Shown here one piece after another: positions 207-18,143 of a stretch of 24,000 bases of DNA. Positions within the stretch are counted from its first letter, which is position 1; every line of letters begins with the position of its first letter. Under the pieces are notes generated by a model that did no database searches, had not been told where the DNA came from, and saw nothing but the letters and a program-made list of their open reading frames with translations. Source of the DNA: an uncultured Acidobacteriota bacterium (lineage in GTDB: Bacteria > Acidobacteriota > Blastocatellia > Pyrinomonadales > Pyrinomonadaceae); NCBI GenBank assembly GCA_963748155.1, contig CAVVHV010000006.1, positions 562,648-586,647 of the forward strand, read 5' to 3'. Made by a program: the position numbers and the translations under genes.

Positions 207-683
207 CTAGCACCTGATAGAGGCCCGATTAGCCGGCCCCGTTTGAAACTCCTTCATCGTCGCCTCCACTAGATACGCAAAGAGACCGCGATCACTATGA
301 TTGGCGATGAGATTCGCATCTACCTCACTGATCGAGACCTGGCTCGCCGTTGTCTCAGGATTGTATCTGTAGTTGAGTCGACTGATGGCTTCGCGCAACA
401 CGGCTTTGTTGTCAGTGAGCTCTGCAAGCAACCGATTTGCCCGCTGGTCGATACAACATCAATCGGTCCTTAGCCGTCATCTTGTTTTCTACGAAATGAG
501 TTAAGACGGAGCGGGCGCGGCTCAAGCCCTCGCCCGTCAAGTGAACGTCATCCACGAAAAAGAAAATTACACGTCCGCGATTGGATCCTCGATCTGCCGT
601 TCCTGGCGACGTTGCGAGAGCAGCGGAGAATAGGCGAGGCCGATCAAAAGCACGTTCAGGGAAAGAACGCTAAATATTCGCAT
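207..683 (-). pseudogene. Remnant of a secreted VWA-domain protein (acidobacterial VWFA-related type), split over three frames
   Basis: Minus-strand ATG at 683-681 opens a signal-like peptide MRIFSVLSLNVLLIGLAYS... that stops after 38 codons. The next frame continues VIFFFVDDVHLTGEGLSRARSVLTHFVENKMTAKDRLMLYRPAGKSV. The tracked ORF 207-431 then continues LAELTDNKAVLREAISRLNY...ISEVDANLIANHSD. The hydrophobic-strand-DD start and the following segment order resemble VWA folds as I remember them. The signal peptide is joined directly to the VWA core, so N-terminal sequence also seems to be missing. Not searched. Confidence 0.4.
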
Positions 684-824
684 TGGATCTTCTTTCGTTG
701 GTGAAACCTCGCGTCTCGTTCACAGAACGCTAGAGTACCACTCGAGTTGTGCTGCTACCATCTCTGTAGAGCCTTTGACGCGACCAAACCAACTGCTGCT
801 CCTGTTTTATTTGAGCACCATTTG

Positions 825-853
825 TTGACAAGATTTCATCACCGCACTAGGAT
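825..853 (+). promoter_or_regulatory. Candidate sigma70-type promoter for the lipid operon
   Basis: TTGACA (825-830), 17-nt spacer, TAGGAT (848-853), inside the 313-nt gap upstream of the first operon gene. Pattern match only. Confidence 0.3.
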
Positions 854-996
854 GCGGCCGCACAAAATCTCACTGTTGCCTTAGGTACCGACGTGAGACT
901 TCGGTTCCTTCTGCACACCCTCGTCCGCGTTGATTTTGTGCCTTACACCTCCCAGGCATTGCATCGATGTAACTTGCTACTTAGACAGTCGGAATA

Positions 997-2061
997 GTGT
1001 CACAGGCGTTGCTCTGTCAGCGTAGGGTTGCCCTTACGCTAAGTAACAGAAGCGGCATGTGTAAGTGTAATCATTCGACAGTAAAAACAACGGAGGGATC
1101 GGTGATAACACACAAAGCAGAGCCCTCTCCGGCCGTGATGGGCCACCTGCGCTCATCGAACCGGGCCGGCGGCCTACTGTTGACTTCAGCAGTGGTACTC
1201 ACGGCGCTTGGTGTCGTGCTGTCTCTCCAACCAAACGCGTTAGTGTGGTTACTGGGACAGTTGCTCCTTGCTATCACGATGGTCCAATGGTTCGCGTTGC
1301 TTCATGAATGTGGCCACGGAACGCTCTTCCGCTCCAAGGCACTTCATGCACCCGTTGGTAGAGTAGCTGCCTTTTTCTCGCTCATCCCTTTCTACTGCTG
1401 GAAACGAGTCCATGGCCAGCATCACAAGTGGACTGGATGGCAGGATTTGGATCCAACCACCGCCGCGCTCGTCCCCCGTACCCTCGGCCGCGCTGAGCAG
1501 ATTTTGATGAACGTTTGCTGGAGATTCTGGATCCCGCTTTTCGCCACCCTATACCGGATTAACAACTACTGGCACTTGCCTCGGCTACGTTCGCTGTTCC
1601 CAAAACGAGAAGACCGCAGGCATTTCACGATCAGCATCATCGGCTACTTCCTGGTCTACGTGGCTGTCGCCATTCTCCTCGGTCCCAGGACGCTGCTGCG
1701 AGTCATGGGTCTTGCGACTGTGCTCGCATTTGTCGTGGAGGATCTTCTGATTCTGAGCCAGCACACGCACATTCCTCAGAACCTGAGTCAGGGAAGGCAA
1801 GTTCCTCCCTTCCCCGCTCTCGAGCAAGAGGTATTCACGCGATCTCTCATCATCCCATCGTGGCTTTCGACGATGTTGCTGCACATCGACGCTCACGAAC
1901 TCCACCATATGTACCCATCCGTGCCCGGTTATCACCTACGCGATATCCCGTACGACACGCGCAACGAAATAGACTGGTGGGTGTGGGTGAGAGACGCACG
2001 CGCAGTGCCTGGTGAGACGTTGATGTTTCACAACCGGATCGAGACTGGCCTCAACATTTGA
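997..2061 (+). CDS. Membrane fatty-acid desaturase family protein (three His boxes)
   Basis: Intact 354-aa ORF. His boxes HECGHG, HGQHHKWTG and HELHHMYP sit between hydrophobic helices, the classic FA_desaturase layout. Start uncertain: GTG 997, ATG 1057 or ATG 1138. Confidence 0.85.
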   Translation: MSQALLCQRRVALTLSNRSGMCKCNHSTVKTTEGSVITHKAEPSPAVMGHLRSSNRAGGLLLTSAVVLTALGVVLSLQPNALVWLLGQLLLAITMVQWFALLHECGHGTLFRSKALHAPVGRVAAFFSLIPFYCWKRVHGQHHKWTGWQDLDPTTAALVPRTLGRAEQILMNVCWRFWIPLFATLYRINNYWHLPRLRSLFPKREDRRHFTISIIGYFLVYVAVAILLGPRTLLRVMGLATVLAFVVEDLLILSQHTHIPQNLSQGRQVPPFPALEQEVFTRSLIIPSWLSTMLLHIDAHELHHMYPSVPGYHLRDIPYDTRNEIDWWVWVRDARAVPGETLMFHNRIETGLNI

Positions 2062-2073
2062 GCCAACGCAACC

Positions 2074-2652
2074 ATGTACGATCCACTTCACTGTGCTCTC
2101 TTCCTGATTCTGGCCTTCATGCTTGCCGGCGTTTTGCATTCGCTGTGGCTGCATAATCGCCTCTCTCAGGCCCTGGCTATTCCGCTTGATGGTGGCCGCA
2201 TGTTTCGCGGGCGGCCGATTCTTGGCGAGAACAAGACACTGCGTGGCTTTGTAATGATCCCGGCCGCGGCGCTGGCTTTTGCCGCAGTCGCCGCCATGAT
2301 TTCTCTTCCACAAGGAGTGCTTCCCGCCACGCTGTGGCAATTAACTCCAACAGGATACGGCGCGCTTGGCGCCCTGGCCGGGTTCGGTTTCATGGCCGGG
2401 GAGCTCCCGAATTCATTCGTCAAGCGCCGGCTGGGCATTTCGCCCGGGCAAGCGCCAGCTTCTGGTCTAACAAAAGCGATCTGCTTCACGATCGATCACA
2501 TCGACTCCATTGTCGGAATGCTTGCCGCAGTGACAGTTGCAGTACACACGCCGTGGGCGACATGGCTGTGGGTGCTTGTCCTTGGACCTTCGATCCATTT
2601 GTTATTCAGTTGGTGGCTCTTCCGAATGGGCGTTAAAGGACGGCCTGCATGA
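2074..2652 (+). CDS. CDP-archaeol synthase-like cytidylyltransferase (CarS / DUF46 family)
   Basis: Intact 192-aa polytopic ORF, 12 nt after the desaturase stop. Segments PLDGGRMFRGRPILGENKTLRGF and GELPNSFVKRRLGISPGQ...IDHIDSIVG parallel the archaeal CarS signatures as I recall them (PIDGG..ILGDGKTWRG and GDL.GSFIKRRLGI..G...LDQLDF). Its stop TGA 2650-2652 overlaps the next ATG at 2649. Confidence 0.75.
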   Translation: MYDPLHCALFLILAFMLAGVLHSLWLHNRLSQALAIPLDGGRMFRGRPILGENKTLRGFVMIPAAALAFAAVAAMISLPQGVLPATLWQLTPTGYGALGALAGFGFMAGELPNSFVKRRLGISPGQAPASGLTKAICFTIDHIDSIVGMLAAVTVAVHTPWATWLWVLVLGPSIHLLFSWWLFRMGVKGRPA

Positions 2653-5338
2653 CGACCTCTTCCCTCCGAGCCGCGCCCGCGCTGAACAGCGCCGGCTACA
2701 TAGTTCCGCTCGACCGGGCAATGCTTCTCGAGCTCGTCGGTGGGAAAGCACATAATCTCTATCGCGTCCTCGATCTCGGTCTTCGTGTGCCTGGTGGCTT
2801 TGTCGTTACCACACGCGCTTTCGAGGACCACCTCGAAGAGAACGATCTTGCGGTGAAGATCCACGCGCTGTCTCAGCGACAGACTGGACAGCTTTCCAAC
2901 CAGCGGCAGTTAGCGACACGCATCCACGATCTCATTGTCAACACTGAGCTCTCACCAGGACTTCGCGATTTGTTGGAGCCGGCCGCCGAGGAGTTGCTTA
3001 ATCATGGACCAGTGGTCGTGCGCAGTTCGGCTATCGGTGAGGATTCCGCGCGAGCCTCGTTCGCCGGGCAGCTTGATTCCTTTCTTCACGTGCGGACGTT
3101 TCGCAGAGTTGGAAAAAGCCCTGCTTGCCTGCTGGGCTTCATGTTGGTCTGAGCGCGCGATCACATACCGCGCCGCTCAGGGAATGGAAGTTAGGGGCAT
3201 GGGTGTCGTCGTACAGACCCAGGTCGACGCGCTCGCCGCCGGCGTTCTGTTCACACGTACCGCCGAAGGAACAATACTCGTCGAGCACACGCCAGGACTG
3301 GGTGACGCGCTCGTGGCTGGGGCAATTAATCCCGGGCGTTTCGTGCTGCCGCGCAGTGGGAACGGCTTCGTGGTGCTTTCCGACGGGGAGCGACCTATTA
3401 CGAGCGTTGAGAACGTGTTGTTCTCCCAATCCATGCTCACTGAACTTCGCCGCGTGGCCGCAATGCTTGAAGAAGGACTGGGTGGAGCTCAGGACGTAGA
3501 GTGGGCGATCGACCGCTCGGGCTTGCTGTATATCGTGCAGTCGCGTCCGATCACCGCAATCCCGACAGTAAGCGCGCCGCAGCCAGGCGGATCGCCGATC
3601 CGTTGGTCGGATGCCAACGTCAACGAGAACTTTCCCGCGCCGATTTCTCCCTTCCTGTACTCGATCGCGAGCGCTGGTTACGCCCACTATTTTCGAAATC
3701 TCGCCCGTGCTTTCGGGCTGTCAAAGACGCGAATCGCCGCGATGGACGATGCGCTCCGTCACATCATCGGCGTTCACGGAGCGAGGATGTATTACAACCT
3801 GACGAATATCCACACCGTGCTTCGACTCGCGCCCTTCGGCGATGCCCTCGTTGACTGCCTTCAACAGTTTCGTCGGAGCGGGCGGCTCGTTTGGTGCGGC
3901 GGCGCGGACGAGAACCGGGCGGGTGCGTGAAGTTGTCGAACTGGCGGTGATAGCTGTAAAGGTCACGTGGCTCTATCTCTTCCTCGAGCGACGCGTGGCG
4001 TCGTTTGAACGGCTGGTTGACGATTTTGCTGAGCGCACGGAACCGAACCGGCTCGCGGCTCTGTCGCTTCGCGATCTGCGGCTACTGCTCAACGAGCTGA
4101 TGGACATCCGCTGTCATCGATGGACCAACGCGAGTCTCGCCGACGCCGCGTCGATGGTCTGTTACGCGATGCTGCGCCGGCTGGTGGAACAAGCCAACGA
4201 CGGTAAAGTTGGAAGCACTGCATAACACCCTCCTCAAAGCCATTCCCCAGCTTGTCAGTGGCCAGCCCGTGCACGAGCTCTGGGAGCTTTCGCGAACGGT
4301 TCGCGCTGACGCAGCCCTTCGCAATCTATTTGAGAGCGATTCGGAATCTGTCGTTAACCAGATCGCCGTCAACCCAAAGTTCGCGGACTTCCGTTCGCAG
4401 TTCGAGGAGTATTTGCAACGATGGGGCTTCCGCTGTTCCGCTGAACTCATGCTCACGGCTCCAAGCTTCCAGGAAGAACCTGCGCTGCTCGTCGACATTA
4501 TTCGCGCCTATGCGCGCCGGGATTGCGAATCGCCTGCTGCGGCGCTCAGCAGACAGCTTGCTGAGCGAGAGCAGGAAACCAAGTCCCTACTGCGAAGACT
4601 GCCGATGGCGCCGCGCCGCCGTCTTACGCATCGTCCTCCGCTGGACGCAAGCCGCCATTGCTTATCGAGAGCGGGCTCGCCTCAAACAGGCGCTGCTGTA
4701 CAGCCGCTGTCGCCGCCTGGCGCTTGCGCTAGGCGACCAACTGGTGATGCGCGGGCGCCTGGCGGAGCGAGAAGACGTCTTCTGGCTGACTGTTTCACGA
4801 GGTCGATGAGCTTGCTGCGGGACGCGCCATGTTCCCGCACCACGTGCAGGAACTGACGACCATGCGTAAGCGCGCGCACGAGCAACTCGCCGCGAGGCAA
4901 CCATTGAATGACTTCACTCTTCCCGAAGGAGAGTATCTGCCTCTGGATGGAGACTTACACGTTGGCAATGTCACACCGGCGCAACATGATCACTCTGGAT
5001 CACACACGCTACAGGGAGTAGGTGCATGCGGCGGCCGCGTGGTGGGCCGTGCTGTCGTTTTACACGACGCGAGTGAGGCGGGCGTCCTTACCGCGAAGAT
5101 ATCCTGGTTACACGTCAAACAGATCCGGGCTGGGCGCCAGTCTTTTTTCTAATTAAGGGCCTGGTCATCGAGCGAGGGGGAATGCTTTCACACGGCGCAA
5201 TTGTGGCGCGCGAATTCGGAATACCGTGTGTTGTCGGTGTACAGCATGCGACTCGTGAACTGTTCCGCGCCGGACAGATCGAAGTTGATGGCGATCAGGG
5301 GAAAGTTCATGTCTTCGAGGCTTTGCACAAAAGTCACT
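2649..5338 (+). pseudogene. PEP-utilising phosphotransferase (PPDK_N ATP-grasp + central domain + phosphohistidine swivel domain; rifampicin-phosphotransferase-like architecture), six frame changes
   Basis: One protein is readable across tracked ORFs in changing frames.
N-terminal ATP-grasp: GGKAHNLYRVLDLGLRVPGGFVVT and VVVRSSAIGEDSARASFAGQLDSFLHV (2649 ORF); LLACWASCWSERAITYR, MGVVVQTQVDALAAGVLFT and DVEWAIDRSGLLYIVQSRPIT (2935 ORF).
Central ~400 aa: ORFs 3842, 4209, 4252 and 4829.
C-terminal swivel domain: DILVTRQTDPGWAPVF...ERGGMLSHGAIVAREFGIPCVVG (from 5101, 5182 ORF).
Frame changes lie near 3100, 3850, 4210, 4605, 4793 and 5090. There is no in-frame stop after the conserved end (GKVHVFE, 5319); reading runs on into the repeat at 5339. 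Confidence 0.8.
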
Positions 5339-5618
5339 CAGCCTGCGAAGCAGGCGTAAGCATAAAGCCTGGGGCGCAAGCCCCAGGATCCGAAAATAAA
5401 AAAGCGTTGCGAGCCCGCGAAGCGGGCGGCAGCATAAAGCCTGGGGCGCAAGCCCCAGGATCAGATCACAAAAGACAAGCCGGAGCCCGTGAAACGGGCG
5501 ACAGCGTGAAATTTTCAGTCTTTCGCCCGCTGTCGCGGGCTCCGGCTTTTTTATTTGGCACGTTAACCTGGGGCTTGCGCCCCAGGCTTTATGCTTACGC
5601 CTGCTATCGCAGGCTAAG
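5339..5618. repeat. Composite MITE-like nested palindrome inserted between two operon genes
   Basis: The 49-nt left arm cagcctgcgaagcaggcgtaagcataaagcctggggcgcaagccccagg (5339-5387) is matched in inverted form at 5567-5618, with one extra base. A second direct half-copy (gagcccgcgaagcgggcggcagcataaagcctggggcgcaagccccagg) lies at 5411-5460, and an inner hairpin at 5478-5547. The sub-hairpins are gcctgc-gaa-gcaggc, gcccgc-gaa-gcgggc and ggggc-gcaa-gcccc. Confidence 0.8.
5478..5556 (+). terminator. Terminator-like module carried by the repeat (11-bp closing stem + T-run)
   Basis: agccggagccc (5478-5488) pairs with gggctccggct (5537-5547) and is followed directly by ttttttattt. The enclosed 48 nt form smaller GC hairpins. 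It lies inside the operon on the sense strand. Structure judged by eye, not folded. Confidence 0.35.
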
Positions 5619-5661
5619 AAATTTCATTCGATTTCGACTTTTTGAGCAAAGCCTGTCTTCG

Positions 5662-6320
5662 ATAAAACTGATTTACGCTTATTGGCGTGAGCGTTATTCC
5701 ATAAGCGTATTCTTACCCTTCGCAATCTTGATCGCCGCCGCGGGAGCCGCAGCGGGAGGGTCGCTCCCTCCAGTTCGCGACGCCTGGATAGGTTGCGTCC
5801 TCGCCTACACGCTGGTTTTGGTTTTCCGCATTGGTGATGACCTCGCAGATCTCAGTAGCGATCGCCTGCGCCATCCGGGCAGAGTGTTGGTCCAGGACAG
5901 CGAGTGTAACTCCGATCATTGTGTTTGCATTGGTGATCGCCGCCGGCGACATCCTGTTGATGCTTCGCCAACCGCAGCCCCGGCGCTCGCCTCGCTGTCT
6001 TTTTCGCGATTTCACTCTTCCTTTGGCTTTGGTATCACTGGCGGGCGCGCCTTCGCGTTGGTCCACTCGCCAGTGCGCACGTCGTGCTCGTCAAGTATCC
6101 CGTTATTTCTCTTTTGACATGCGCGCACTGGGACAAACTGTCACAACACACCGCGCTTCCCGCGCTCGGCGCGATCTATCTTGGCTTATGCATTTACGAA
6201 CAGGTTCATGACCGCGTGGTTCGCGAGTCGCGCGGAGCCGCTTGGATTTTCGCTGCGGAGGTGGTGCTCCTTGCCGGCCTTCCGCTGCTAATGCTTTCGA
6301 CTGGAGGTCTTCTTCGATGA
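5662..6320 (+). pseudogene. Short polytopic membrane protein with a UbiA-type Asp-rich motif (possible alkyl/prenyl transferase), two frame changes and no canonical start
   Basis: Frame 1 from 5662 reads (I)KLIYAYWRERYSISVFLPFAILIAAAG...LAYTLVLVFRIGDDLADLSSDRLRHPGRVLV. The frame starting at 5831 then reads SVTPIIVFALVIAAGDILLML. The frame from 5958 to 6320 reads RLAVFFAISLFLWLWYHW...VVLVKYPVISLL...ALGAIYLGLCIYEQ...IFAAEVVLLAGLPLLML.
DDLADLSSD fits [ND]DxxDxxxD of the UbiA superfamily, followed by HP.R.L. There is no ATG, GTG or TTG in frame between 5619 and 5727; ATA at 5662 sits where ATG-AAA-CTG would be expected. At ~219 codons it is short for UbiA. Confidence 0.4.
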
Positions 6321-7300
6321 CAGCCCCTGCCCTGCTGGTGAGTGGAGCGCTTCAGTCCGGACCGCCCGCTACACACTTTGAGAAAGTCTCGTGTTACTAC
6401 TGCGGGGCCACGGAATGGTCAGCCTTTCTTACGGCTCAGGACGATCTCACCGGGCGCCCAGGCACATTCACTTTTACCACCTGCAAGCGCTGCGGACTCC
6501 GGTATCAAAATCCGCGGCTTCGCATCGAGCACGTCAAGGCCTTTTACGATAACGAGTACATCGCCCACCGGAAAAAGACAGACTGGGGTCCGCTCAAAAG
6601 TTTTTTCAACTGGGTGATGGATCGGCACGATCGGCAGAAGGAAAAACTCGTGCGCCGGTACGTTGCGCTCGGCCCGGAGAGCGAAGTTCTCGACGTGGGC
6701 TGCGCAGTAGGAACCTTCCTGCAGAAAGTGCGTGCGCTCCATGGCGCTCGTGTTGTTGGCGTCGACTTCAAGGATCTACGCGGCTGCCAATCGCTCGAAG
6801 ACGTCGAGTTCTACTGCGGCCTGTTCTACGAACAACCGCTCGAACGCGAACGCTTCGACGCCATTACCATGTGGCATTTCCTCGAACACGATTACGATCC
6901 TCTACGCACACTTCAAACAGCACGCGACCTGATGAAGAAGTCTGGCTATCTCGTGATTGAGGTTCCACGTCTCGACTCGCTCACCTTTCGGCTCTACGGC
7001 GACCGGTGGCCCGGTCTGCAGGCGCCGCAGCATACAGTGCTTTACGACCGCGAGATGCTTTTGCGCATGGTCCAAAAAGCCGGGCTGAAGGTCGTCGATT
7101 ATTTGCCCTACGGCGCTTTTCCAGCATTTTTTTATTTCTTCGCCGGAGCAGCATTCAAGCTGCTCAAGGGTAAGGGTCTTAATCTCTCACGAGCCATCTA
7201 TCCCTATTTTGTTGGACAGATTTTATTTGCCCCAATCCTTGCTTTCGAGAAGCACCTCAACTTTGCGATGCAGACCGTTATCTGCAGGCGGGAGGATTAG
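6317..7300 (+). CDS. Class I SAM-dependent methyltransferase with N-terminal Cys4 zinc-ribbon
   Basis: Intact ORF. ATG 6317 overlaps the upstream stop TGA 6318-6320, although the tracked ORF begins further upstream at 6242. CYYCG...CKRCG lies ahead of motif I VLDVGCAVGTFL, followed by FDAITMWHFLEH and GYLVIEVP, typical of the Methyltransf_11/23 type. The C-terminal tail is hydrophobic. Confidence 0.85.
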   Translation: MTAPALLVSGALQSGPPATHFEKVSCYYCGATEWSAFLTAQDDLTGRPGTFTFTTCKRCGLRYQNPRLRIEHVKAFYDNEYIAHRKKTDWGPLKSFFNWVMDRHDRQKEKLVRRYVALGPESEVLDVGCAVGTFLQKVRALHGARVVGVDFKDLRGCQSLEDVEFYCGLFYEQPLERERFDAITMWHFLEHDYDPLRTLQTARDLMKKSGYLVIEVPRLDSLTFRLYGDRWPGLQAPQHTVLYDREMLLRMVQKAGLKVVDYLPYGAFPAFFYFFAGAAFKLLKGKGLNLSRAIYPYFVGQILFAPILAFEKHLNFAMQTVICRRED

Positions 7301-7302
7301 GT

Positions 7303-8090
7303 ATGCGCATGGGTCTCCGTATTGCACTGACGGGTTTGTTCATGCTGGCCGGCTCGATTCTTATGCTGGTCGTCGCGATTCCCACGCTTTTCCTGGCGCG
7401 CCGTTTCTATTCCGAGGTCATCGTCCGTTGGATGGGCCGCGTCGTTCTCAGGATCTGGAGGATTGACTACACTACGCACTATTCCGAGCCACTCCCAGAC
7501 CGCCAGACTATCTACATTTCGAATCACACCTCGACGCTCGATGTATTGCTCTTGATTGCGCTCGGTTTGCCGCGCGCGCGATTTTTTCTTTCCGGTTACC
7601 TGCGCAAATTCGCCCGTCGTTGCGATCATCGGATACATCATCCGTATCTTTTGGACCGTTCCTCAGAGGTTCCCGGAGCGAAGGCGCCAAATCTTCCAGC
7701 GCGCTGACCGCATCTTACGGCGCACTGGTGATTCGGTGTTCCTGAGCCCGGAAGGCAAGTGTGTAACGACGGGTGAGATTGGCCCATTCAATAAGGGCTC
7801 GTTCCATCTCGCCACAAGCCTGAAGGCGCCTATCGTCCCCATCTACATTCACATCCCGCCAAAAGTGCAGGGGTATAGAGGTTACCGCGCCAATCCGGGG
7901 ACACGTCGGCGTCTATTTTCTCCCTGCTATCGACACGTCGTCGTGGCAACTTGAGGACCTGGAAGCCAATCGAGATCGAGTGCACCGTCTTTATCTCCGC
8001 GTGCATGACGCGATGCGCGCAAACGGCAGGCTTCCGGCGGACCTTCGCATCGAGCCGCTGCAACCCGAACTTATGAGGGCCGCCGTATGA
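7303..8090 (+). pseudogene. PlsC/AGPAT-family lysophospholipid acyltransferase, two frame changes
   Basis: An N-terminal TM helix is followed by the HX4D motif in IYISNHTSTLDVLLL (7303 ORF). FLSPEGKCVTTGEIGPFNKGSFHLA and PIVPIYIHI follow in the 7556 ORF. A third frame gives GHVGVYFLPAIDTSSW...RLYLRVHDAMRANG, ending at TGA 8088-8090, which overlaps ATG 8087 of the next gene. Shifts lie near 7610 and 7865. Confidence 0.75.
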
Positions 8091-9932
8091 CCCACGACTT
8101 TCGCTCGCTGGTTGCCATGTTGCGTCACCGAGCGCTGCATCAGGGAAACTGTCGCGCCTATACCTTTCTTGCAGACGGCGAAACCGAGAGCGCCGCGCTT
8201 ACCTATGCACAACTGGATCGTCGCGCGTGCGCAGTGGCTGCTGCCCTTTCAGATCGAGGAGCGAGACCTGGAGATCGTGTCATCCTGCTTTACCCGCCGG
8301 GCCTTGATTTCATAACGGCGTTCTTCGGCTCGATCTATGCAGGCGTGATCGCCGTTCCGTGTTATCCGCCTCACCGCTTGCAGATCGCTCGTTCGCTCCC
8401 GCGCCTGACAGCGATCGTGGACAATGCCGAGCCCGGCATTGTCCTTTGCACAGCGGAGGTTGCTGCTGACGCACCCGCCTGGGTTGCGCATGTCCCAGCC
8501 CTCAATGCGCTTCCCTGGATCATCACCGATACGCTCGCGGATGACGCCGCCGCCACGTGGAAAGAACCTGATGTCGACTCGTCAACTCTGGCCTTTCTTC
8601 AGTACACTTCGGGCTCAACCGCCGCGCCTCGTGGAGTGATGGTTACTCACGGTAACCTCCTCCACAACCTCGCCGCCATCAATTACGTGCAGGAGAATGA
8701 CTCCGACAGCGTTTCCGTTTCCTGGCTTCCGGTGATCCACGATATGGGACTGATCGAAGGAGTTCTCGAGCCAGCCTATGCGGGTTACCCAGCCTATCTA
8801 ATGTCGCCTGCTACTTTCCTCCAGCGTCCCCTCCGCTGGCTGCGCGCGATTAGTAAGTATCGTGCCACGAACAGCGGTGGTCCAAACTTCGCGTATGACC
8901 TATGTGCTCGAAAGGTCAACGCCGAACAACGTAGCAACTTTCGATCTTTCCAGTTGGCGCGTCGCATATAACGGCGCCGAGCCGATTCGCAGCGAAACAT
9001 TGACTGCGTTCTATTAGAGCGTTCGCTGATTGCGGCTTCCGTTGGAAGTCCTTTTATCCGGTGTACGGCCTGGCCGAATCGACGCTTTTGGTCACTAGTG
9101 GGCGCAGGACCTACCAGCCAGTCTTTCTGGACGCCGATGCTTCTGCTCTTTCCGGTGGGCGCATTGAAGAAGCCTCGCCAGATGGGCCATCCCGACAAGT
9201 CTCACTGGTATCGACTGGGCCACCTGCACTTGATACGCGCGTTCTCATTGTAAATCCCGATACCTGCCGGCGTTGCGCGCCGCGCGAAATCGGTGAGATC
9301 TGGCTCTCATCACCGAGCGTTACAAAAGGTTACTGGCGACGCGAGGAGGAAACCTCGCAAACCTTTGGCGCTAGTGCTCACCGACGATGGGAGCGGACCG
9401 TATCTGCGCACGGGCGATCTCGGCGTGCTCATCGACGGCGAGCTTTTTGTTGCGGGACGACTAAAAGACCTTCTGATCGTCCGCGGGTTCAAACACTACC
9501 CGCAAGATCTGGAATTAACGGTTGAGCGCCAACACCCGGCTATCCGTCCAGGTTGTGTCGCCGTATTCGCCCTCGAGGCACACGACGAACACATCGCCGT
9601 TGCCGCTGAACTAGACCCGCGGCGCCTCGATATCACCCGGACGAATCCTCTGGAATTCCTCGCTCTTTCTCGCGCGAGGGCAATCTCGCAAACGCGATCT
9701 CCGATCTGATCGGCAGGATTTGCCAGGCTGTCGCGGAGATTCACGGTGTCCAACTCCACACGATCGCTCTGCTGAAACCGGGCGCGCTTCCGAAAACAAC
9801 CAGCGGCAAGATTCCCATCGTGCATGTGCCCAGGCCTTGTCCGGTGGGCAATTGGCCGAGCTTGTGCGATGGATCAAACCCGAGGTTGGACCATTGGATT
9901 CTGCAACTACGCTACAGTGGGCCACGATATGA
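8087..9932 (+). pseudogene. Fatty acyl-AMP ligase (FAAL, FadD32-like adenylating enzyme), five frame changes
   Basis: Motifs appear in canonical order across five frames: FLQYTSGSTAAPRGVMVTHGNLLHN, WLPVIHDMGLI, GGPNFAYDLC, DLSSWRVAYNGAEPIR, PVYGLAESTLLV, GEIWLSSPSVTKGYW, YLRTGDLGVLIDGELFVAGRLKDLLIVRGFKHYPQDLE and LPKTTSGKI..HRACAQAL. Shifts lie near 8940, 9015, 9372, 9620-9675 and 9812. Stop TGA 9930-9932 overlaps the ACP ATG at 9929. Confidence 0.85.
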
Positions 9933-10233
9933 CGACAACGCAACAGCTCACGGCAGGCGACGCGTTGCGCCCGAGGTTGGCGCAGCTTGCGGCCGATGTG
10001 CTGCGCATCCCCGTGGCCGATATTCATCCCACTGTGCCGTTCTCAGCCATGGGTTTGGATTCACTCGCGGCAGCTGAACTTACCGCGCTGAATTGAAGAT
10101 GAACTCTGCCACGAACTGCCACCGGCGGTGCTTTTCGAATGTCCCAGTATCGATTCGCTGTCGCGCTTCATCGAATCGCGCTTTGCTGGAGCGGCAATTG
10201 AGAAGAGCGAGAGAGAGACACGTATCTGCGCGA
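9929..10233 (+). CDS. Acyl carrier protein (phosphopantetheine-binding), frameshifted and probably once fused to the downstream reductase
   Basis: MTTTQQLTAGDALRPRLAQLAADVLRIPVADIHPTVPFSAMGLDSLAAAELTAL carries the GLDS attachment serine. The helix continues in another frame as IEDELCHELPPAVLFECPSIDSLSRFIESRF (shift near 10093). A further shift near 10215 leads into the reductase frame with no intervening stop or start signal. Confidence 0.7.
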
Positions 10234-11433
10234 ATGCTGACGGACGCGATCTTGCCGGCCGACATCGTGCCAGCCTGCCCTCAGGAATGTCTTAATGACA
10301 ATGTGCTTTTGACGGGCAGCACCGGTTTTGTCGGCGCTTATTTGCTACGCTCGCTCCTTCGCGACACGCCGGCCATGGTCCACTGCATGGTCCGGGGCAG
10401 CGACACAGAGGCGAGCGTTCGTGTGCGCCGAAATCTCGCGCAATACGGGCTCTGGGAGGAGCACTTTGCGTCGCGCATTCGCTATGTCTATGGCGACGTC
10501 TCGCATCCATTGTTGGGAATGGCGAGCCGAGATTTCAGCCAGCTCGCTAACTCTATCAGCGCGATCTACCACGCCGCTGCTGCCGTCGATTGGGTGCGGC
10601 CGTACGAGGACCTTCGGGATGTGAACGTCTTTGGCACGCGCGAGCTACTTCGTCTCGCCTGCTCAGGGCCGGCAAAATCTTTTCACTTTCTTTCGAGCCT
10701 GGCTGTTTGTTACTCCAACGGCGCGCCCGGTGACGCCCTCGAGGGTGATGATCCTCTCACCAATCTGAGGGGTTTGAGTCTGGGTTATGCGCAGAGCAAA
10801 TGTGTCGCAGAGTCGTTGGTGCGACAGGCGATCGAGCGTGGCTGCCACGCTACTATTGCCCGGCCGACCCTTGTTTCCGGAGATTCGACATCCGGAATCT
10901 CGAATGCCGATGACTTACTTTCTCGTTTACTTCGAGGCTGCATCCACATGGGCGCGGCACCCGATCTCGACTGGGCGATGGATTGTGTACCCGTCGATCA
11001 CGTCGCCGATGCGATGGTCCAACTTGCGCGAAACGGGGTTCCCGGCGGTGTCTATCATTTGGTTAATCCGAAGTTGCGGTATTGGCGTGAATGCGTACTG
11101 TGGATGTGTCTCCGGGGCTATCCACTCGAGCTGATGCCCTATCGCGACTGGACCATGCGCCTGCACAAGACAGCAACCAGCTCAAACCCGCTCTATCCCT
11201 TGCAGTCGTTCTTCCTGCGCACTATTCCCGAGGAAGGCGACCTTGCTATTCCCGAGCTGTACGAAGAAAAGCGCCGCCGCCGAACGCGATGCGATTTTTC
11301 CCGCGCTTTACTTGCACAAGCGGGAATAACCTGTGCGCCCCTGGATGCCCACCTCCTCGATCGGTACTTCGACTCGTATACGGAGCGCTGCTTGATTCCG
11401 ACGGTGGCGCGCGCGACCGCACGTACGTCGTGA
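10093..11433 (+). CDS. Thioester reductase (NAD(P)-binding terminal R domain, SDR-type)
   Basis: Rossmann motif VLLTGSTGFVGAYLL, catalytic YAQSKCVAE (YxxxK), then RPTLVSGDSTSG and VPVDHVADAMV, the order seen in NRPS/CAR-type R domains. The first ~45 codons of the tracked ORF are out-of-frame ACP sequence. ATG 10234 (MLTDAILPADIVPA) would give a stand-alone 399-aa protein. Confidence 0.85.
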   Translation: MKMNSATNCHRRCFSNVPVSIRCRASSNRALLERQLRRARERHVSARMLTDAILPADIVPACPQECLNDNVLLTGSTGFVGAYLLRSLLRDTPAMVHCMVRGSDTEASVRVRRNLAQYGLWEEHFASRIRYVYGDVSHPLLGMASRDFSQLANSISAIYHAAAAVDWVRPYEDLRDVNVFGTRELLRLACSGPAKSFHFLSSLAVCYSNGAPGDALEGDDPLTNLRGLSLGYAQSKCVAESLVRQAIERGCHATIARPTLVSGDSTSGISNADDLLSRLLRGCIHMGAAPDLDWAMDCVPVDHVADAMVQLARNGVPGGVYHLVNPKLRYWRECVLWMCLRGYPLELMPYRDWTMRLHKTATSSNPLYPLQSFFLRTIPEEGDLAIPELYEEKRRRRTRCDFSRALLAQAGITCAPLDAHLLDRYFDSYTERCLIPTVARATARTS

Positions 11434-12606
11434 CGCGCGTCTCAGCAGCCCGCTCGTCACGGCGATCGAGCAGTTCGCTGCGGCGTCGTAACTGCGATCC
11501 GGCATTGCGCATCACGAACGTGGAACTCTTTCCCATGAATGGCGACGACAGCATCGTTGCTGAGCTGACATCCTGGAAGCGCGGATCTCGACCAGGGCTT
11601 CGTCGCGCTCGGCTGACAACTGAATCGCGGGATGGATGCACGTCGGTGATCGATCTGATGTTGAAGTCCAAGCCTCCGGACACGGATGCAATAGCACGTA
11701 GGCGAACAGGTCGCGCGCCTGTGCGGACGTCAACTGGGCGACGCGTACGCAGCGTGGCGCGACCATATCGGGCTCACCAGGGGGCACCTCAGGGAATTGG
11801 CAATTTATGAGACCGATGATCAACGCTTTCTCGATCATGTTCCGGCGCCCCTTACTGTGTTGCGCGATGACGAACGAGGCGAGTGGCTGATGGCGCTCGA
11901 GTACGTGAGCGATGCCCCTGTGGCTAATGCGTGGGATCGCTCATGGACCAACATCGAGATCGACGTCGCTCTTCGGGGTCTTGCCGTTCTTCATGCCGTC
12001 TGGCGCGATCGTTGGGAGACGCTGATTTCGAAGAGTTGGCTTGCGCCGCGGCGCAGCTCGGCGCAGATGGCAGAGATGCTTCCCCTCTGGTCGGCTCTTG
12101 CCGCAAACGCGCGCCCGGCTTTTATGAACTGGGCGGGACCCGCGCTGGTTAAGGCCCACGAGTCCCTGTTATGTGGAATCGACCGCTGGTGGCAGCCGCT
12201 CGGCAACAATCTCCAGACCTTAATTCATAACGACTTCAATCCCCGGAATATTATGCTCCGCGGCCTCCCGTTGCGCCTTTGTGCCTACGACTGGGAGCTT
12301 GCAACTATCGGCGCTCCACAGCGCGATCTGGCCGAGTTTCTCTGTTTCACGCTGGCGCCTGAGACGTCGGCTGATGATGCGCCCGCCTGGCTTCAGCGTT
12401 ACTGCGGTCTGCTGGAGGAACAAACAGGAACAACCATCGATCGGATCGAATGGGAAGCGGGATTCCGGGCCGCGCTTTGTGACTTCCTGATCGATCGGCT
12501 GGCAATGTACGCGATGATTCATCGCTTCCGTCCACAGGCGTTTCTCCCGCGCGTCGTGCGCACCTGGCTGATGCTTCACAACCGTTTCCCGTGGCCTATC
12601 TCATGA
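11430..12606 (+). pseudogene. APH/choline-kinase-fold phosphotransferase, one frame change near 11692
   Basis: GTG 11430 overlaps the reductase stop (GTGA). The N-lobe (IVAELTSW...VIDLMLKSKPPDTDAIA) is in one frame and the rest is in the 11797 ORF frame. It carries the Brenner motif LIHNDFNPRNIML and the metal-binding YDWELATIGAPQRDLAEF. The exact start is uncertain. Confidence 0.7.
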
Positions 12607-13229
12607 ACAACGTCCCCGCTCACATGGAACCCGCTGGACCAGCGGGCACCATACACGTCAGCAACCTGATTACGTACATGGCGCTCATGGCAGGCTGTGG
12701 TGCTGCATATCTCGCCATGATCTCTCACCACCGCGCTGCGGCCGGGGCGTTCATGGCCGTCGCCGTTATTGCTGATACCTTCGATGGACTCTTCGCTCGC
12801 TTGTTTGATCGCACAAGCTTCCAGTCGGCGTTTGGCGTACAACTCGACAGCCTCACCGATGCCGTAACGTGCGGCTTCGTTCCTGTGATCGTACTCGCGT
12901 CAGACAGCACGCCAGCGACATTGGGCGCAGCCTTTGCGTGGTGGAGTTGCGCGTTTCTCTATACGTTCGCTGCTATCACGAGGCTCGGCTACTACAACCT
13001 CACACACGGCGACGGCCCTTGGTTCGTCGGCCTGCCAGCGCCTTTCTGCGCCCTGGTGATCTCGACATCACTGCTCTGGTCACCACACGCTCTCGCCGCT
13101 GCATTGATTTTGGTCTGCTGCGCTGTGGCCATGGTTGCACCGATCCGTCTACCGCGTCCGCGGGCCGCAGGGCTCATCGCCTTCGTGGGCTGGGCGCTGG
13201 TTCTCGTGGTGCTTCACGGCCTGGTTTAA
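12603..13229 (+). CDS. pssA: CDP-alcohol phosphatidyltransferase, phosphatidylserine/archaetidylserine-synthase-like
   Basis: Carries the signature D(x2)DG(x2)AR...G(x3)D(x3)D as ADTFDGLFARLFDRTSFQSAFGVQLDSLTDAV. FG.QLDSL.D..T.GF.P resembles PssA-type members. ATG 12603 overlaps the kinase stop (ATGA); the tracked ORF starts at GTG 12591. Polytopic, 208 aa. Confidence 0.75.
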   Translation: MNNVPAHMEPAGPAGTIHVSNLITYMALMAGCGAAYLAMISHHRAAAGAFMAVAVIADTFDGLFARLFDRTSFQSAFGVQLDSLTDAVTCGFVPVIVLASDSTPATLGAAFAWWSCAFLYTFAAITRLGYYNLTHGDGPWFVGLPAPFCALVISTSLLWSPHALAAALILVCCAVAMVAPIRLPRPRAAGLIAFVGWALVLVVLHGLV

Positions 13230-13241
13230 TTGAGCTTGGAT

Positions 13242-13394
13242 CGGGTCAGTACCACCTGCGGTAGCGGGTGGGTGCGTAGCTACGGGCGACTGCTCATCAT
13301 CTCGTTAGATCAACGCTGCGAGCACCTTGTGTTGATAGCACTGACCTGCTTGAGGGCTGCGCACCCACCCGCTATCGCAGGTGGTACTGACCCG
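13242..13394. repeat. REPIN-like inverted doublet (copy 1), between convergent genes
   Basis: The arm cgggtcagtaccacctgcggtagcgggtgggtgcg (13242-13276) is inverted at 13360-13394 with one G-T difference, around an 83-nt centre. Each arm contains its own hairpin, ccacctgc-ggta-gcgggtgg. The same arms recur at 20165-20265. Confidence 0.85.
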
Positions 13395-13410
13395 GTCCCA
13401 ATCACATTGG

Positions 13411-15525
13411 CTAAGGGAAACTCGTAGTACTCGGCTGGCGTCGAAGAGCGACCCCCGAACATCGTTCCACGAAGATTCGATTCACCAATCTCGCTATTTC
13501 TTCCACCGCTCTTTCAGGAGGCTTGCCACGGCGATGAATCCCACAAACGGCGGTTGTCGACGAATGGTCAAATCCTGGCGCCCAGCGCGATTGACCCCTC
13601 TCATCCAAACCATAGGTTAAGTATGCCGAAAGCGTATCGATCCCAGTGCCAGGCCGCTCGCCGATCAAATGAATGATCATTTCAGCCTTCAGCAGCGAAC
13701 CGACGTGATAACCCGCCCGCACTCTCCCATTCTCAATAACAATGTCTATCTCGCTAATATGATGACCTGCCGCCTGGAGTTCGCGCCGTATGCCCGGTAG
13801 GACCGAACGCAGATTCTCATTGACCGCGTTCGCATTGAGCCCATCCGAAACGACAACCTGCACTTGCGGCCGGCGCGCGGAATAGAGCGCCTGGATACGA
13901 ACCGTATCCTCGTCTGCGATCAGCTCGCCCGTTGCCGCGTGCGCCAGGTAGTCATCTCGGTCCAAAGACCTTGTATGCGCTCGAACGTGACGCGGCGACG
14001 AGTCAAAGACCACTGCCTCTTCCATTGTCGCGTAGAGTGCGTTCCTCGCATTTGAGTAGATCCCCGTAATTCGAGCGTTCGCTTCGGGCGGGTCACCGTA
14101 GTTTTCGTCACAGCCGTAACCAAGATCGGACCCTCGTTCGGCTAGCGCTCCAATCTTTTTTGCTCCTTCGTCGCGGAGCGTATCCAGCGAACGAGTGTCG
14201 CCACCAGCTTTGTGATAAGCCGCATACAGTACATCCGCACTCCTACCGGATACCGCGCCGAATTCAGTCATCGCGGACAGCTCGATTAATCTCTTCTGCA
14301 TTGCGGAGGCGATTTGGCGCCCGGTTTGGCGGCGCAACCTCGGATGCTCGCGAAACGAAGTTGTCATGTATCCAAGCATTGGATCCGCGTTTCCCGCGAC
14401 CGCCATCAAATAGGCCGGGGCAGCCTGGACCACGATGTGTTCCGTCAGGGTCTGCAATTCGACAGGTCCAATGCCCATATGAAAAGTGGCGCAGACATCG
14501 AGTCCCATTGTGATTCCGTGAAGCTTGGCCATCACAGTGTCTTCAAGGCACGCCCGTAGCAATTGCTCGCCGGTGCGGAAGACTTCGGGTCCGATGAATC
14601 CGGCGACATCGTTCACAATCATCCAACTGCCTGTCTGCTGTTGAATGAGTCTCGCAACCCCGTAGGCTCGCGCTTCGAGTGTAACCATATCAACACCCTC
14701 GGCAGCCTGATTGGTGACTGCGGAACCCTGACCCGTCTCGAAGTAGAGCCCGTCAAATCCAGGCGCAAGGGCGAGCAATCCATCAACATTGAGTCCCACC
14801 ATCCCCAATATTGCCTTCGAGGTTCCGGCAAGACTTTGAAAGCCAACATCCACTTTTGTTTGTGAGCGCGCAGTGGTCTGCTTCACGATGTCCGACAGCA
14901 CGCAGAATCGAGTAGGTAACTCAAGTCGCTCGACCACACTCTGCAGTAACTGCTCGAGCCTAATGATTGTGTCGACATCGTCGCTGGCAGGATTGAGACC
15001 GAGAATCACATCCCCGCAACCGTACGCGACCCCTTCGAGAATTGAAAGCAATATCTCGGTTTCATCGTCGCCTGGGGAGTTAGGCTGAATTCGCGAGCCG
15101 AGATGTCCCGGTGAACCTATAGCGATTCCTCCTCCCGGCAGCGGATTGAAGAGCTTGCAGGAAAGCGTTCCCAGCTCTTCATTAGTCATCACTTTCACCA
15201 CTGCAGCAGCGGCTTCGCTTGAGACACCATTGCGATGACGCTCGATCCAACTCGTGCCTTGCGGCGAAAGGAGAATTCGCTTGAGCTCAGCCACGGTAAG
15301 GTGAGCCACTTCACCGGCCAGTTGCGGATCCAAAGATCGATGAAGAGCTTCAGTGACTTGATCTTCAACGAAGTCCGTACTGGCAATATCTCCGAGTGAC
15401 AGAGCGGCCAGCGCGTCACGTGCTTCTCGGCGAACGTGGTCATCGCGCGTGCCGCCGACGTTCAGATCGCCTTCTTTGAACTCATTGGCGAGCGCAAATA
15501 TTTGGCTAAGCTGGTTGCGAGCCAT
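13411..15525 (-). CDS. eutBC: Ethanolamine ammonia-lyase, large and small subunits fused in one 704-aa polypeptide
   Basis: Intact ORF. The EutB part carries SRIQPNSPGDD, LGLNPASDD, FQSLAGTS, YFETGQGSA and NDVAGFIGPEVF. From about residue 500 the EutC part carries VQVVVSDGLNANAV and IHLIGERPGTG. There is no stop or frame change between the two parts. Confidence 0.9.
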   Translation of the reverse strand: MARNQLSQIFALANEFKEGDLNVGGTRDDHVRREARDALAALSLGDIASTDFVEDQVTEALHRSLDPQLAGEVAHLTVAELKRILLSPQGTSWIERHRNGVSSEAAAAVVKVMTNEELGTLSCKLFNPLPGGGIAIGSPGHLGSRIQPNSPGDDETEILLSILEGVAYGCGDVILGLNPASDDVDTIIRLEQLLQSVVERLELPTRFCVLSDIVKQTTARSQTKVDVGFQSLAGTSKAILGMVGLNVDGLLALAPGFDGLYFETGQGSAVTNQAAEGVDMVTLEARAYGVARLIQQQTGSWMIVNDVAGFIGPEVFRTGEQLLRACLEDTVMAKLHGITMGLDVCATFHMGIGPVELQTLTEHIVVQAAPAYLMAVAGNADPMLGYMTTSFREHPRLRRQTGRQIASAMQKRLIELSAMTEFGAVSGRSADVLYAAYHKAGGDTRSLDTLRDEGAKKIGALAERGSDLGYGCDENYGDPPEANARITGIYSNARNALYATMEEAVVFDSSPRHVRAHTRSLDRDDYLAHAATGELIADEDTVRIQALYSARRPQVQVVVSDGLNANAVNENLRSVLPGIRRELQAAGHHISEIDIVIENGRVRAGYHVGSLLKAEMIIHLIGERPGTGIDTLSAYLTYGLDERGQSRWAPGFDHSSTTAVCGIHRRGKPPERAVEEIARLVNRIFVERCSGVALRRQPSTTSFP

Positions 15526-15592
15526 GGTGAAGAATCATTCTAGACCGGAAGAGAATCAGGGAGAACCCGTCAAGAGTTGACTGCGCGTGCGG

Positions 15593-15621
15593 ATTGAAAT
15601 CGCAGATCCCTACCGTGTCAA
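15593..15621 (-). promoter_or_regulatory. Weak candidate promoter for eutBC
   Basis: On the minus strand: TTGACA (15621-15616), 17-nt spacer, TTCAAT (15598-15593), ~70 nt upstream of the ATG. Pattern match only. Confidence 0.2.
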
Positions 15622-15665
15622 TTTCCATCACGAGCGGGTAATGGTACAGGTTGAAATCGACTCAT

Positions 15666-18113: not shown

Positions 18114-18143
18114 AGACCTTCGACCACGCAGCGTCAATTGAAC

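Follow-up and report, generated by a model that had tools for sequence, protein, structure and literature searches.

Aerobic bacterial synthesis of non-isoprenoid alkyl glycerol ethers is partly known, with elb, AGPS and PlsA/Ger as candidates, and these ethers are the presumed building blocks of the branched tetraethers, which serve as palaeoclimate proxies. The myxobacterial elb operon codes for the NAD-epimerases ElbA and ElbE, the HAD phosphatase ElbB, ElbC and the multidomain protein ElbD (PMC9131029). Papers on the ether lipids of Acidobacteria and of sponge symbionts name homologues of elb, AGPS and PlsA/Ger, and not the gene set described here. This gene set is located at positions 997-13229 of a stretch of 24,000 nucleotides (the window) from contig CAVVHV010000006.1 of an uncultured Pyrinomonadaceae bacterium (Acidobacteriota). 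An earlier reading of the letters without database searches (the sequence-only reading) had proposed an operon of eleven genes for ether lipids, joining archaeal-type lipid enzymes to an ElbD-like module for the reduction of fatty acids. It had named ligase, acyl carrier protein (ACP), reductase and AGPAT as the domain set of ElbD, which is correct (PMC9131029), and all four are encoded here.

The block is an operon with translationally coupled genes, which is conserved beyond its own phylum and whose products have recognizable domains, including a reductase-kinase fusion and a membrane protein modelled with a UbiA-like fold. As a lipid gene cluster it is real and widespread, and apparently undescribed. 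In the full-text literature, with most subscription journals outside its scope, searches that also covered bacterial CarS homologues and fatty alcohol (di)phosphates gave no description of the operon, in agreement with the earlier statement that no described bacterial pathway follows this logic. The reading put forward here is that the block forms a self-contained operon of nine genes under a single promoter for a specialised membrane phospholipid, that the fatty-acid chain is reduced and then phosphorylated, and that the copy is intact in the source organism. Taken together this is held tentatively, as a serious possibility rather than a probable one.

Gene content, promoter and conservation of the operon

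All coding open reading frames (ORFs) of 997-13229 are on the forward strand, as claimed before. The genes are joined by ATGA start-stop overlaps at 2649, 6317, 8087, 9929 and 12603, and the two gaps, 12 nt between des and carS and 2 nt between mt and at, also agree with the sequence-only reading. The features of the operon are listed below, each gene with the shorthand used in the text (TR stands for thioester reductase).

825..853, forward strand: sigma-70-type promoter (TTGACA-17 nt-TAGGAT) with a T-rich stretch upstream; best consensus match (10 of 12) in a scan of 600-13500
854..1101, forward strand: 5′ leader, about 250 nt long, recognized by DNA conservation and including a conserved hairpin (ACCGACGT-GAGA-CTTCGGT)
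1102..2061, forward strand: des, membrane protein of the fatty-acid desaturase/hydroxylase family with three His boxes, intact (PF00487, E = 7e-22)
2074..2652, forward strand: carS, CarS-like (DUF46) membrane protein of 192 aa, intact; putative CTP-dependent cytidylyltransferase or lipid kinase (PF01864)
2649..5318, forward strand: pep, rifampin-phosphotransferase-like dikinase of about 900 aa with ATP-grasp PPDK_N, central and C-terminal swivel-His domains; about 7 indels in the window
5319..5653, no strand: inserted palindromic repeat of 335 bp, similar to a miniature inverted-repeat transposable element; 9-bp target-site duplication TGTCTTCGA at 5310-5318 and 5654-5662
5654..6320, forward strand: memb, small polytopic membrane protein (221 aa in orthologues) with a fold like UbiA and digeranylgeranylglyceryl phosphate (DGGGP) synthase; two +1 insertions in the window
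6317..7300, forward strand: mt, S-adenosylmethionine-dependent methyltransferase of 327 aa with an N-terminal CxxC...CxxC segment, intact (Methyltransf_23, E = 1.9e-23)
7303..8090, forward strand: at, PlsC/AGPAT-type acyltransferase of about 261 aa with HxxxxD (NHTSTLD); two +1 insertions (PF01553 over two frames)
8087..9932, forward strand: faal, fatty acyl-AMP ligase (FAAL) of about 614 aa (AMP-binding, 2.3e-47); about 4 single-base indels in the window
9929..12606, forward strand: acp-TR-kinase, single ACP-thioester reductase-APH-fold kinase protein (PP-binding, NAD_binding_4, APH/EcKL)
12603..13229, forward strand: CDP-alcohol phosphatidyltransferase of the PssA/archaetidylserine synthase type, 208 aa, intact (PF01066, 1.7e-13)
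13234..13398, no strand: palindromic repeat closing the operon, in the gap between the last gene and eutBC, whose stops converge; second copy at 20156-20271

The intact operon in Pyrinomonadaceae metagenome-assembled genomes (loci L003, L012 and others) consists of nine genes. Their products have lengths of 330 aa (desaturase), 193 aa (CarS-like protein), 908 aa (dikinase), 221-242 aa (small membrane protein), 330 aa (methyltransferase), 261 aa (acyltransferase), 614 aa (FAAL), 895-914 aa (ACP-thioester reductase-kinase) and about 210-220 aa (CDP-alcohol phosphatidyltransferase). The number of eleven genes had to be corrected to nine, because ACP, reductase and kinase form one ORF in the intact orthologues and frameshifts within this eighth gene had produced the higher count. 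The GTGA gene boundary proposed at 11430 is an artefact of a +1 insertion near 11420 inside the same gene.

In the window, Pfam matches were obtained for FA_desaturase, CarS-like, PPDK_N and PEP-utilizers, Methyltransf_23, Acyltransferase, AMP-binding, PP-binding, NAD_binding_4, APH/EcKL and CDP-OH_P_transf, those for PPDK_N, Acyltransferase and AMP-binding each being divided among different frames. Thus, ten of the eleven families named by the sequence-only reading were confirmed, the exception being UbiA (PF01040), and its gene content stands.

The promoter at 825-853 occurs only once in the window, and both of its hexamers are invariant or nearly so in eight Pyrinomonadaceae loci. It is followed by the leader, whose DNA is 72-84% identical to the regions upstream of des in loci L001 and L003-L007/L012. 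When the whole window was scanned with Rfam to look for a riboswitch in this leader, nothing matched; the conserved leader could be a regulatory element. The maximal ORF of des extends from 997 to 2061, and its likely start is the GTG at 1102, which follows a GGAGG. The 800 bp upstream of the promoter are non-coding except for an ORF of 74 aa on the reverse strand (207-431), possibly a gene remnant.

Conservation was analyzed by scanning species-representative genomes with the methyltransferase, which gave 207 relatives, of which the best 80 loci were retrieved. No protein of the operon is more conserved than the methyltransferase, which has 59-88% identity across phyla. The order des-carS-pep-memb-mt-at-faal-acpTRkinase is complete in 40 of the 80 loci, belonging to Acidobacteriota, Gemmatimonadota and Planctomycetota, and since the order is identical in these 40, the arrangement is far beyond chance. 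The conservation that the sequence-only reading had proposed to test was thus found, and the gene order is not unique to this genome. The CDP-alcohol transferase gene is located downstream of this string in Acidobacteriota and Gemmatimonadota and upstream of it in Planctomycetota. Most of the remaining patterns are truncated by contig ends. In Myxococcota the string is present with an inverted desaturase gene, and the operon is rearranged or partial in Myxococcota, Nitrospiria, Gammaproteobacteria and Binatia. The invariant core across the loci is des-pep-memb-mt-at.

ORF clustering of the 80 neighbourhoods for additional linked families (glycerol-1-phosphate dehydrogenase, geranylgeranylglyceryl phosphate synthase, AGPS, Psd and polyprenyl or isoprenoid genes) found none in more than 10 loci, and the unit is therefore self-contained. 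In single loci the acyltransferase gene deviates: in L005 it is broken by an insertion of about 1.2 kb (about 11540-12730), and in L081 it is called together with FAAL as one product of 879 aa (6140-8779), either by a fusion or by a frameshift at the ATGA junction.

Predicted lipid synthesis and candidate products

The best NCBIfam matches of the fatty acyl-AMP ligase are FAAL families, e.g., FadD32 (4.6e-114). The thioester reductase scores 289.6 bits for TIGR01746, above the cut-off of 213.35, and its NAD_binding_4 domain was matched with 1.8e-63 in the window. The nearest PDB relative of the kinase domain is the ACAD11 kinase (8v3v, 7.9e-5), which phosphorylates a hydroxyl group on an acyl chain. 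ACP, thioester reductase and kinase are encoded by one ORF in Acidobacteriota, Gemmatimonadota, Planctomycetota and Myxococcota, including L003, L012 and L081, and the reductase-kinase fusion is found wherever the module occurs. Two gammaproteobacterial loci have kept the fused reductase-kinase without FAAL or ACP.

The second phosphotransferase is the dikinase encoded by pep. Its PPDK_N domain extends across two frames in the window and its PEP-utilizers domain lies at 5182-5300; the swivel motif GGMLSHGAIVARE is readable in the translation. The intact orthologue of 908 aa has PPDK_N at 26-308, PEP-utilizers at 834-902 and no other domain, and the L081 product also contains Rph_4th. The protein thus has the ATP-grasp and the mobile His domain and lacks the TIM-barrel domain for phosphoenolpyruvate (PEP) or pyruvate. 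Its best PDB relatives are 5hv1, 5hv2 and 5fbs (3.6e-67 to 6e-67), the chains of 5hv2 and 5fbs being matched in two stretches; these are structures of the rifampin phosphotransferase (RPH) of Listeria. The scores in NCBIfam are all below the equivalog level, with 474 bits for PRK06241.2-2 as the best (cut-off 883), followed by RPH with 323 (999), RedH with 290 (1350) and PigC with 255 (1300). It had been named a PEP-utilising phosphotransferase before: both domains were confirmed, and the architecture is that of the rifampin phosphotransferase type.

In four Pirellulaceae loci (L045, L048, L051, L054) the module of FAAL and ACP-thioester reductase-kinase is absent within the following 5-10 kb. 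Instead, a conserved pair of genes downstream of the acyltransferase gene, on the reverse strand, codes for an acyl-ACP reductase homologue and a second dikinase, again rifampin-phosphotransferase-like. The reductase is related to the cyanobacterial acyl-ACP reductase (PDB 6jzq, 1.6e-12) and has an N-terminal extension of 200 aa. Portions of this pattern were also found in the partial loci L033 and L057. Since unrelated proteins supply reductase and kinase in Pirellulaceae, the sequence "reduce, then phosphorylate" seems to be a conserved logic. This replacement is the strongest argument for the phosphorylation of a reduced fatty chain, and it also suggests a need for two phosphoryl transfers. 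The reduction and phosphorylation steps proposed earlier thereby gained comparative support, from the conserved reductase-kinase fusion as well as from the non-orthologous replacement.

The same loci bear on the possibility that the operon is a split ElbD-type system, in which the ether bond would be formed by the still unknown chemistry of Myxococcus with ligase, ACP, reductase and AGPAT, and the other genes would tailor the lipid or build its head group. The domain set is that of ElbD, Myxococcota carry the operon, and the gene calls of L081 even join acyltransferase and FAAL in one 879-aa product. However, the Pirellulaceae variants have lost FAAL, ACP and thioester reductase and kept the rest, and the invariant core des-pep-memb-mt-at is not the ElbD-like part. 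Moreover, the elb partners, i.e., the NAD-epimerases ElbA/E, the HAD phosphatase ElbB, and ElbC, are all absent. This explanation is considered very unlikely.

The remaining genes code for enzymes of lipid assembly and tailoring. The desaturase is 72% identical to its orthologue in L012. The CarS-like protein scores 38.2 bits for PF01864, its L012 orthologue 39.7, both above the cut-off of 22. Its only NCBIfam match is CDP-archaeol synthase (NF003114) with 60.9 bits, below the equivalog cut-off of 148, and its only PDB sequence match is CarS itself (5guf, E = 6e-4). By its sequence it belongs to a distant, paralogous branch of bacterial proteins. PF01553 was found in an intact acyltransferase orthologue with 3.4e-17. 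The product of the last gene reaches 51.7 bits for PF01066 (cut-off 22), and the motif DTFDGLFARLF...GVQLDSLTD is readable. It scores 76 bits for archaetidylserine synthase and 75 for pssA, where the cut-offs are 240 and 107, so that the equivalog level of serine-specific enzymes is not reached and the specificity for a head group is only a guess.

From these enzymes a glycerol-free phospholipid could be built. A fatty alcohol, possibly hydroxylated before to a 1,2-diol by the desaturase-family enzyme, would receive a phosphate from the fused kinase and an acyl chain from the PlsC-type enzyme, be activated with CTP by the CarS-like enzyme and be provided with a head group by the PssA-like enzyme, without any ether bond. 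This product would use the kinase, the acyltransferase, the CarS-like protein and the CDP-alcohol transferase directly and account for dedicated copies of housekeeping-type enzymes; it would fit the reductase-kinase fusion, and no glycerol-related gene is linked. Yet it leaves no role for the dikinase and the UbiA-fold protein, which are the most tightly coupled genes and always present, and the lineages with des-pep-memb-mt-at only lack exactly the genes it requires. We regard it as unlikely.

The small membrane protein belongs to a previously unannotated and delimited membrane-protein family. A profile search of 1.84 billion representative proteins gave 932 clusters (at 50% identity) for E ≤ 1e-3, of which 649 reached E ≤ 1e-10. 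In relatives its gene overlaps the dikinase gene. The motif D-D-L-A-D-L-S-S-D is readable in the window, and in an alignment of 25 sequences, with identities to the first sequence down to 21%, the residues R59, D62, D63, D66, D70, R77, Y127, K147, Y148, P149, E182 and D186 are invariant. An AlphaFold2 model of high confidence (pLDDT 90.1, predicted TM-score 0.85) was compared with the PDB using Foldseek, and every one of the 50 matches listed is a prenyltransferase or an isoprenyl-diphosphate synthase. The top of the list is formed by archaeal DGGGP synthase (6m31, 7bpu) with TM-scores of 0.57-0.64, MoeN5, the UbiA homologues of Aeropyrum and Archaeoglobus (4od4, 4tq4) and UBIAD1.

UbiA enzymes have two Asp-rich motifs, (N/D)DxxDxxxD with a conserved Arg after it at the end of transmembrane helix 2 and DxxxD at the end of helix 6. 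Here, a first motif DDxxDxxxD...R is located at the end of transmembrane helix 2 (41-65) and in the following short helices, and an invariant E182-x3-D186 at the end of the sixth transmembrane helix (164-185), with Glu instead of Asp as its first acidic residue. The model is consistent with an all-alpha UbiA/isoprenoid-synthase fold of 8-9 transmembrane helices. From the model we conclude that the membrane protein has a UbiA-type fold, and it probably binds Mg-diphosphate.

At the level of sequence, membership in UbiA was rejected on the basis of the Pfam, PDB profile and hhalign searches. The weak signal for an NCBIfam prenyltransferase (PRK13592, E = 0.0017) is far below its cut-off, and in addition there are a few name labels in JGI. 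The designation UbiA-like for the product placed at 5662 by the sequence-only reading therefore failed for PF01040 and held for the structure, with DGGGP synthase as the top match. That reading had named low profile scores of two products as refuting, and half of this outcome occurred: this product scores below the threshold for UbiA profiles, the one at 2074 above that for CarS-like. Similarly, the label of archaeal-type lipid enzymes is right in that archaeal proteins are the nearest characterised relatives of three components, and too strong for the CarS-like and PssA-like proteins, which remain under the equivalog cut-offs.

All structural matches being enzymes of allylic diphosphates, the UbiA-fold protein might be an orthodox prenyltransferase, which attaches an allylic isoprenoid diphosphate to an acceptor from the fatty-acid module and so forms a mixed isoprenoid/fatty lipid. 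This is the chemically least demanding possibility. The donor would come from the pool of the cell or be regained by the CarS-like enzyme together with the dikinase, in the manner of phytol salvage, and CTP-dependent prenol kinases such as VTE5 and dolichol kinase, which are relatives of the cytidylyltransferase family, count in its favour. However, no polyprenyl synthase or isoprenoid gene is linked in the 80 loci, and the conserved pairing of reductase and kinase points to the fatty chain as the species that is phosphorylated. A prenyl product is clearly improbable.

The route proposed here for an ether lipid starts from a fatty acid, which would be loaded onto ACP by FAAL and released by the thioester reductase as fatty aldehyde or alcohol. 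The fused APH-fold kinase and the dikinase would add phosphate, giving an alkyl (or alk-1-enyl) phosphate or diphosphate, a step at which the CarS-like protein might also serve as a CTP-dependent lipid kinase. The UbiA-fold protein would hold the Mg-diphosphate by its acidic motifs and transfer the chain to an acceptor of the glycerol-phosphate type, forming the ether. The PlsC-type enzyme would then acylate the free hydroxyl group, the CarS-like enzyme would yield a CDP-activated lipid, and the PssA-like enzyme would attach the head group, probably serine, while desaturase-family enzyme and methyltransferase would tailor the chain. Each of these chemical steps is inferred, and the ether-lipid route of the sequence-only reading is plausible but unproven.

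In general terms, several phyla would make alkyl or alk-1-enyl ether lipids via a fatty alkyl or enol (di)phosphate, which arises by O-phosphorylation of the aldehyde or alcohol by a PEP-synthase-like dikinase and a second kinase, with transfer to glycerol phosphate by a UbiA-fold enzyme and completion by the CarS-like and archaetidylserine-synthase-like enzymes. Such a pathway would be a fatty-acid-based mirror of the archaeal one with no described counterpart. The combination, including both phosphorylations, is possible though doubtful, and the same doubt attaches to the specific alkyl-diphosphate route to the ether.

A number of observations weigh against the route proposed here. The main chemical objection concerns the electrophile: to our knowledge, prenyltransferases of the UbiA and aromatic types depend on allylic or benzylic diphosphates, and the diphosphate of a saturated alkyl chain would perform poorly in this role, for which we know of no precedent. 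A chain made allylic by the desaturase, or an enol phosphate formed from the aldehyde as PEP is from pyruvate, would ease the objection, which is speculation. The structural matches of the membrane protein have Foldseek E-values of 8e-3 at best. PF01040 was matched neither by the window fragments nor by the intact orthologue at E ≤ 0.1, nor by any of the 25 family members at E ≤ 10; the family profile gave 0 matches to PDB sequences, and hhalign none to E. coli UbiA (with a hand-typed reference sequence). In the 80 loci no gene for glycerol-phosphate supply or of the AGPS type is consistently linked. Nitrospiria, one Solibacteraceae locus and one Binatia locus have kept des-pep-memb-mt-at only, so that CarS, FAAL and reductase-kinase are under no obligatory adjacency there.

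Neither Myxococcus xanthus nor a named cultured ether-lipid producer of subdivision 4 is among the best 80 of the 207 loci. This weakly argues against a link to the ether lipids documented in those strains. Finally, we know of no alkyl ethers in Pirellulaceae or Gemmatimonadota, and a literature search for ether lipids in Rhodopirellula or Gemmatimonas found nothing.

If the UbiA-fold protein does alkylate with a fatty (di)phosphate, this would be new enzymology, a marker gene for environmental producers and a data point for the "lipid divide". Even with another product, the operon stands for an unstudied lipid in lineages that are abundant in soil and sea, namely Pyrinomonadaceae, Gemmatimonadaceae and Pirellulaceae.

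The window copy and its surroundings

In the window, the genes pep, memb, at, faal and acp-TR-kinase, five out of nine, are broken. In comparison with five relatives, about 20 indels of 1-2 nt, none a multiple of three, are private to the window, and tblastn of the intact orthologues onto it shows at least 14 frame changes. The acp-TR-kinase gene has about 5-6 single-base indels and is divided into at least four ORFs. In fifteen cases a single base is inserted; these +1 insertions share no motif and almost never lie in homopolymers. Homopolymers or a methylation motif as the cause were rejected, as the contexts are heterogeneous.

The locus L081, on another long-read contig, is 94-95% identical and has all but two of the window frameshifts absent, with different +1 insertions of its own. 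Since the split from L081, the window branch has accumulated 42, 37 and 110 changes at codon positions 1, 2 and 3; 106 codons changed synonymously and 72 non-synonymously, none to a stop, and the L081 branch is alike. The catalytic motifs are readable in the window frames: His boxes, HxxxxD, GLDSL, YxxxK, HNDxxxxN, DG..AR..G...D...D and the swivel His. Because of the purifying-type substitutions and the lack of new stops, most frameshifts are most likely consensus errors of the long-read metagenome assembly, the window being part of a metagenome contig of 1.03 Mb, and the operon is probably intact in the source organism. The intact CarS-like protein, methyltransferase and CDP-alcohol transferase were matched exactly by a public contig of 1,032,457 bp. 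The pattern of substitutions cannot be reconciled with a long-dead pseudogene carrying 20 frameshifts, and the counts by codon position, of synonymous changes and of stops likewise disfavour an old pseudogene.

The inserted repeat at 5319-5653, which fills the only large gap as the sequence-only reading had observed, has inverted arms (5349-5387 and 5567-5605) with 100% complementarity and is absent from L081 and five other relatives. Its position is precisely where the end of the dikinase gene and the start of the membrane-protein gene overlap. The native ATG of memb at 5309 is thereby cut from its gene body and now opens a dead end of 16 codons. The dikinase frame is open through the repeat into the memb frame (ORF 5182-6117), which on paper gives a fusion with a linker of about 110 aa.

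Alternatively, the genes of the window copy could be true pseudogenes in decay, with the insertion at the pep/memb junction as the first event and the frameshifts as later ones. The true target-site duplication and the lost start codon of memb would fit this, as would the confinement of about 20 frame-breaking indels to the operon, with 0 broken genes in the 10.6 kb downstream. This confinement also counts against the assembly-error explanation, as a uniform error process would not produce it. The GC content shows a step between 1001-15000 and 15001-24000, with 0.55-0.61 in the operon, about 0.55-0.59 in eutBC and 0.49-0.53 in the rest, which suggests that the operon is an acquired or strain-variable island. 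An acquired island, with a GC content of 0.57-0.61 against 0.49-0.53 in the flanks, agrees with decay; because of the same difference, a low-coverage or strain-variable island is also plausible as the cause of consensus errors. Against decay, the changes are biased to third positions, rich in synonymous ones and free of new stops, the window branch being indistinguishable from its sister. The mostly random +1 insertions outside homopolymers are unlike natural decay, which is biased to deletions. In addition, all catalytic motifs are kept and the repeat is traversed in frame. Genuine decay is therefore given little credence. Two frameshifted fragments, looked up exactly in independent assemblies, were not on record, which is uninformative.

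Almost every intergenic gap of the window holds a palindromic repeat. Those at 13234-13398, 20156-20271 and 22831-23069 have a core like CCACCCGC(T/C)A(T/C)CGC(A/G)GGTGG. Convergent with the operon, an ORF of 704 aa on the reverse strand (13411-15525) codes for the fused subunits EutB and EutC of ethanolamine ammonia-lyase; it was rejected as a member of the system, as it is convergent and not located beside the operon in any of the 80 loci. Two palindromic elements of about 220 bp (15666-15887 and 18144-18363), which are 90-99% identical with 58-nt arms of 95-98% complementarity, flank the ORF 16053-18113 for a 686-aa protein with no Pfam or NCBIfam match. A related element was found in L003 at 2514-2658. 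Elements and ORF may form a mobile unit or be mere intergenic repeats with a gene between them. The region 18442-23928 (reverse strand) codes for an ABC exporter, a Spy/CpxP-like periplasmic protein, a CmlA-type diiron beta-hydroxylase and a type II thioesterase and resembles the margin of a gene cluster for non-ribosomal peptides.

Comparison with known systems

Among the systems for bacterial ether lipids, the operon is a distinct and widely distributed candidate, which combines fatty-acid reduction, two kinases and three distant relatives of archaeal enzymes. With elb of Myxococcus xanthus it shares the four domain types of ElbD and the organization as a lipid operon, and myxobacteria carry the present operon too. 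In contrast to elb, the domains are distributed over three proteins, the reductase bears an additional C-terminal kinase, and ElbA/E, ElbB and ElbC are absent. Conversely, elb lacks the desaturase, the CarS-like protein, the dikinase, the UbiA-fold protein, the methyltransferase and the CDP-alcohol transferase. Identity of the two operons was rejected, since the partner genes differ.

The cyanobacterial acyl-ACP reductase is connected to the operon by its homologue, which replaces FAAL and ACP-thioester reductase in the Pirellulaceae variants. Unlike the cyanobacterial enzyme, this homologue has the 200-aa N-terminal extension, and its partner is a dikinase instead of an aldehyde-deformylating oxygenase.

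The dikinase resembles RPH, PEP synthase and PigC/RedH in its three-part architecture of ATP-grasp, substrate domain and C-terminal mobile His domain, without a PEP/pyruvate barrel. It differs from them in that it remains under all family cut-offs, belongs to a lipid operon and overlaps the gene of a membrane transferase.

Phytol salvage in plants and cyanobacteria uses the kinases VTE5 and VTE6 and then the UbiA-type enzymes VTE2/ChlG. As proposed for the present operon, a lipid alcohol is phosphorylated twice, and the diphosphate is passed to a membrane enzyme of the UbiA superfamily. However, phytyl diphosphate is allylic, whereas the chain of the present operon would be derived from a fatty acid, and its second kinase is from a different family.

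Finally, the archaeal succession of DGGGP synthase, CarS and archaetidylserine synthase comprises the nearest characterised relatives of three proteins of the operon. All three are distant, and in the neighbourhoods no glycerol-1-phosphate dehydrogenase, geranylgeranylglyceryl phosphate synthase or polyprenyl synthase is linked. The archaeal chain is an isoprenoid, whereas the chain source of the present operon would be a fatty acid.

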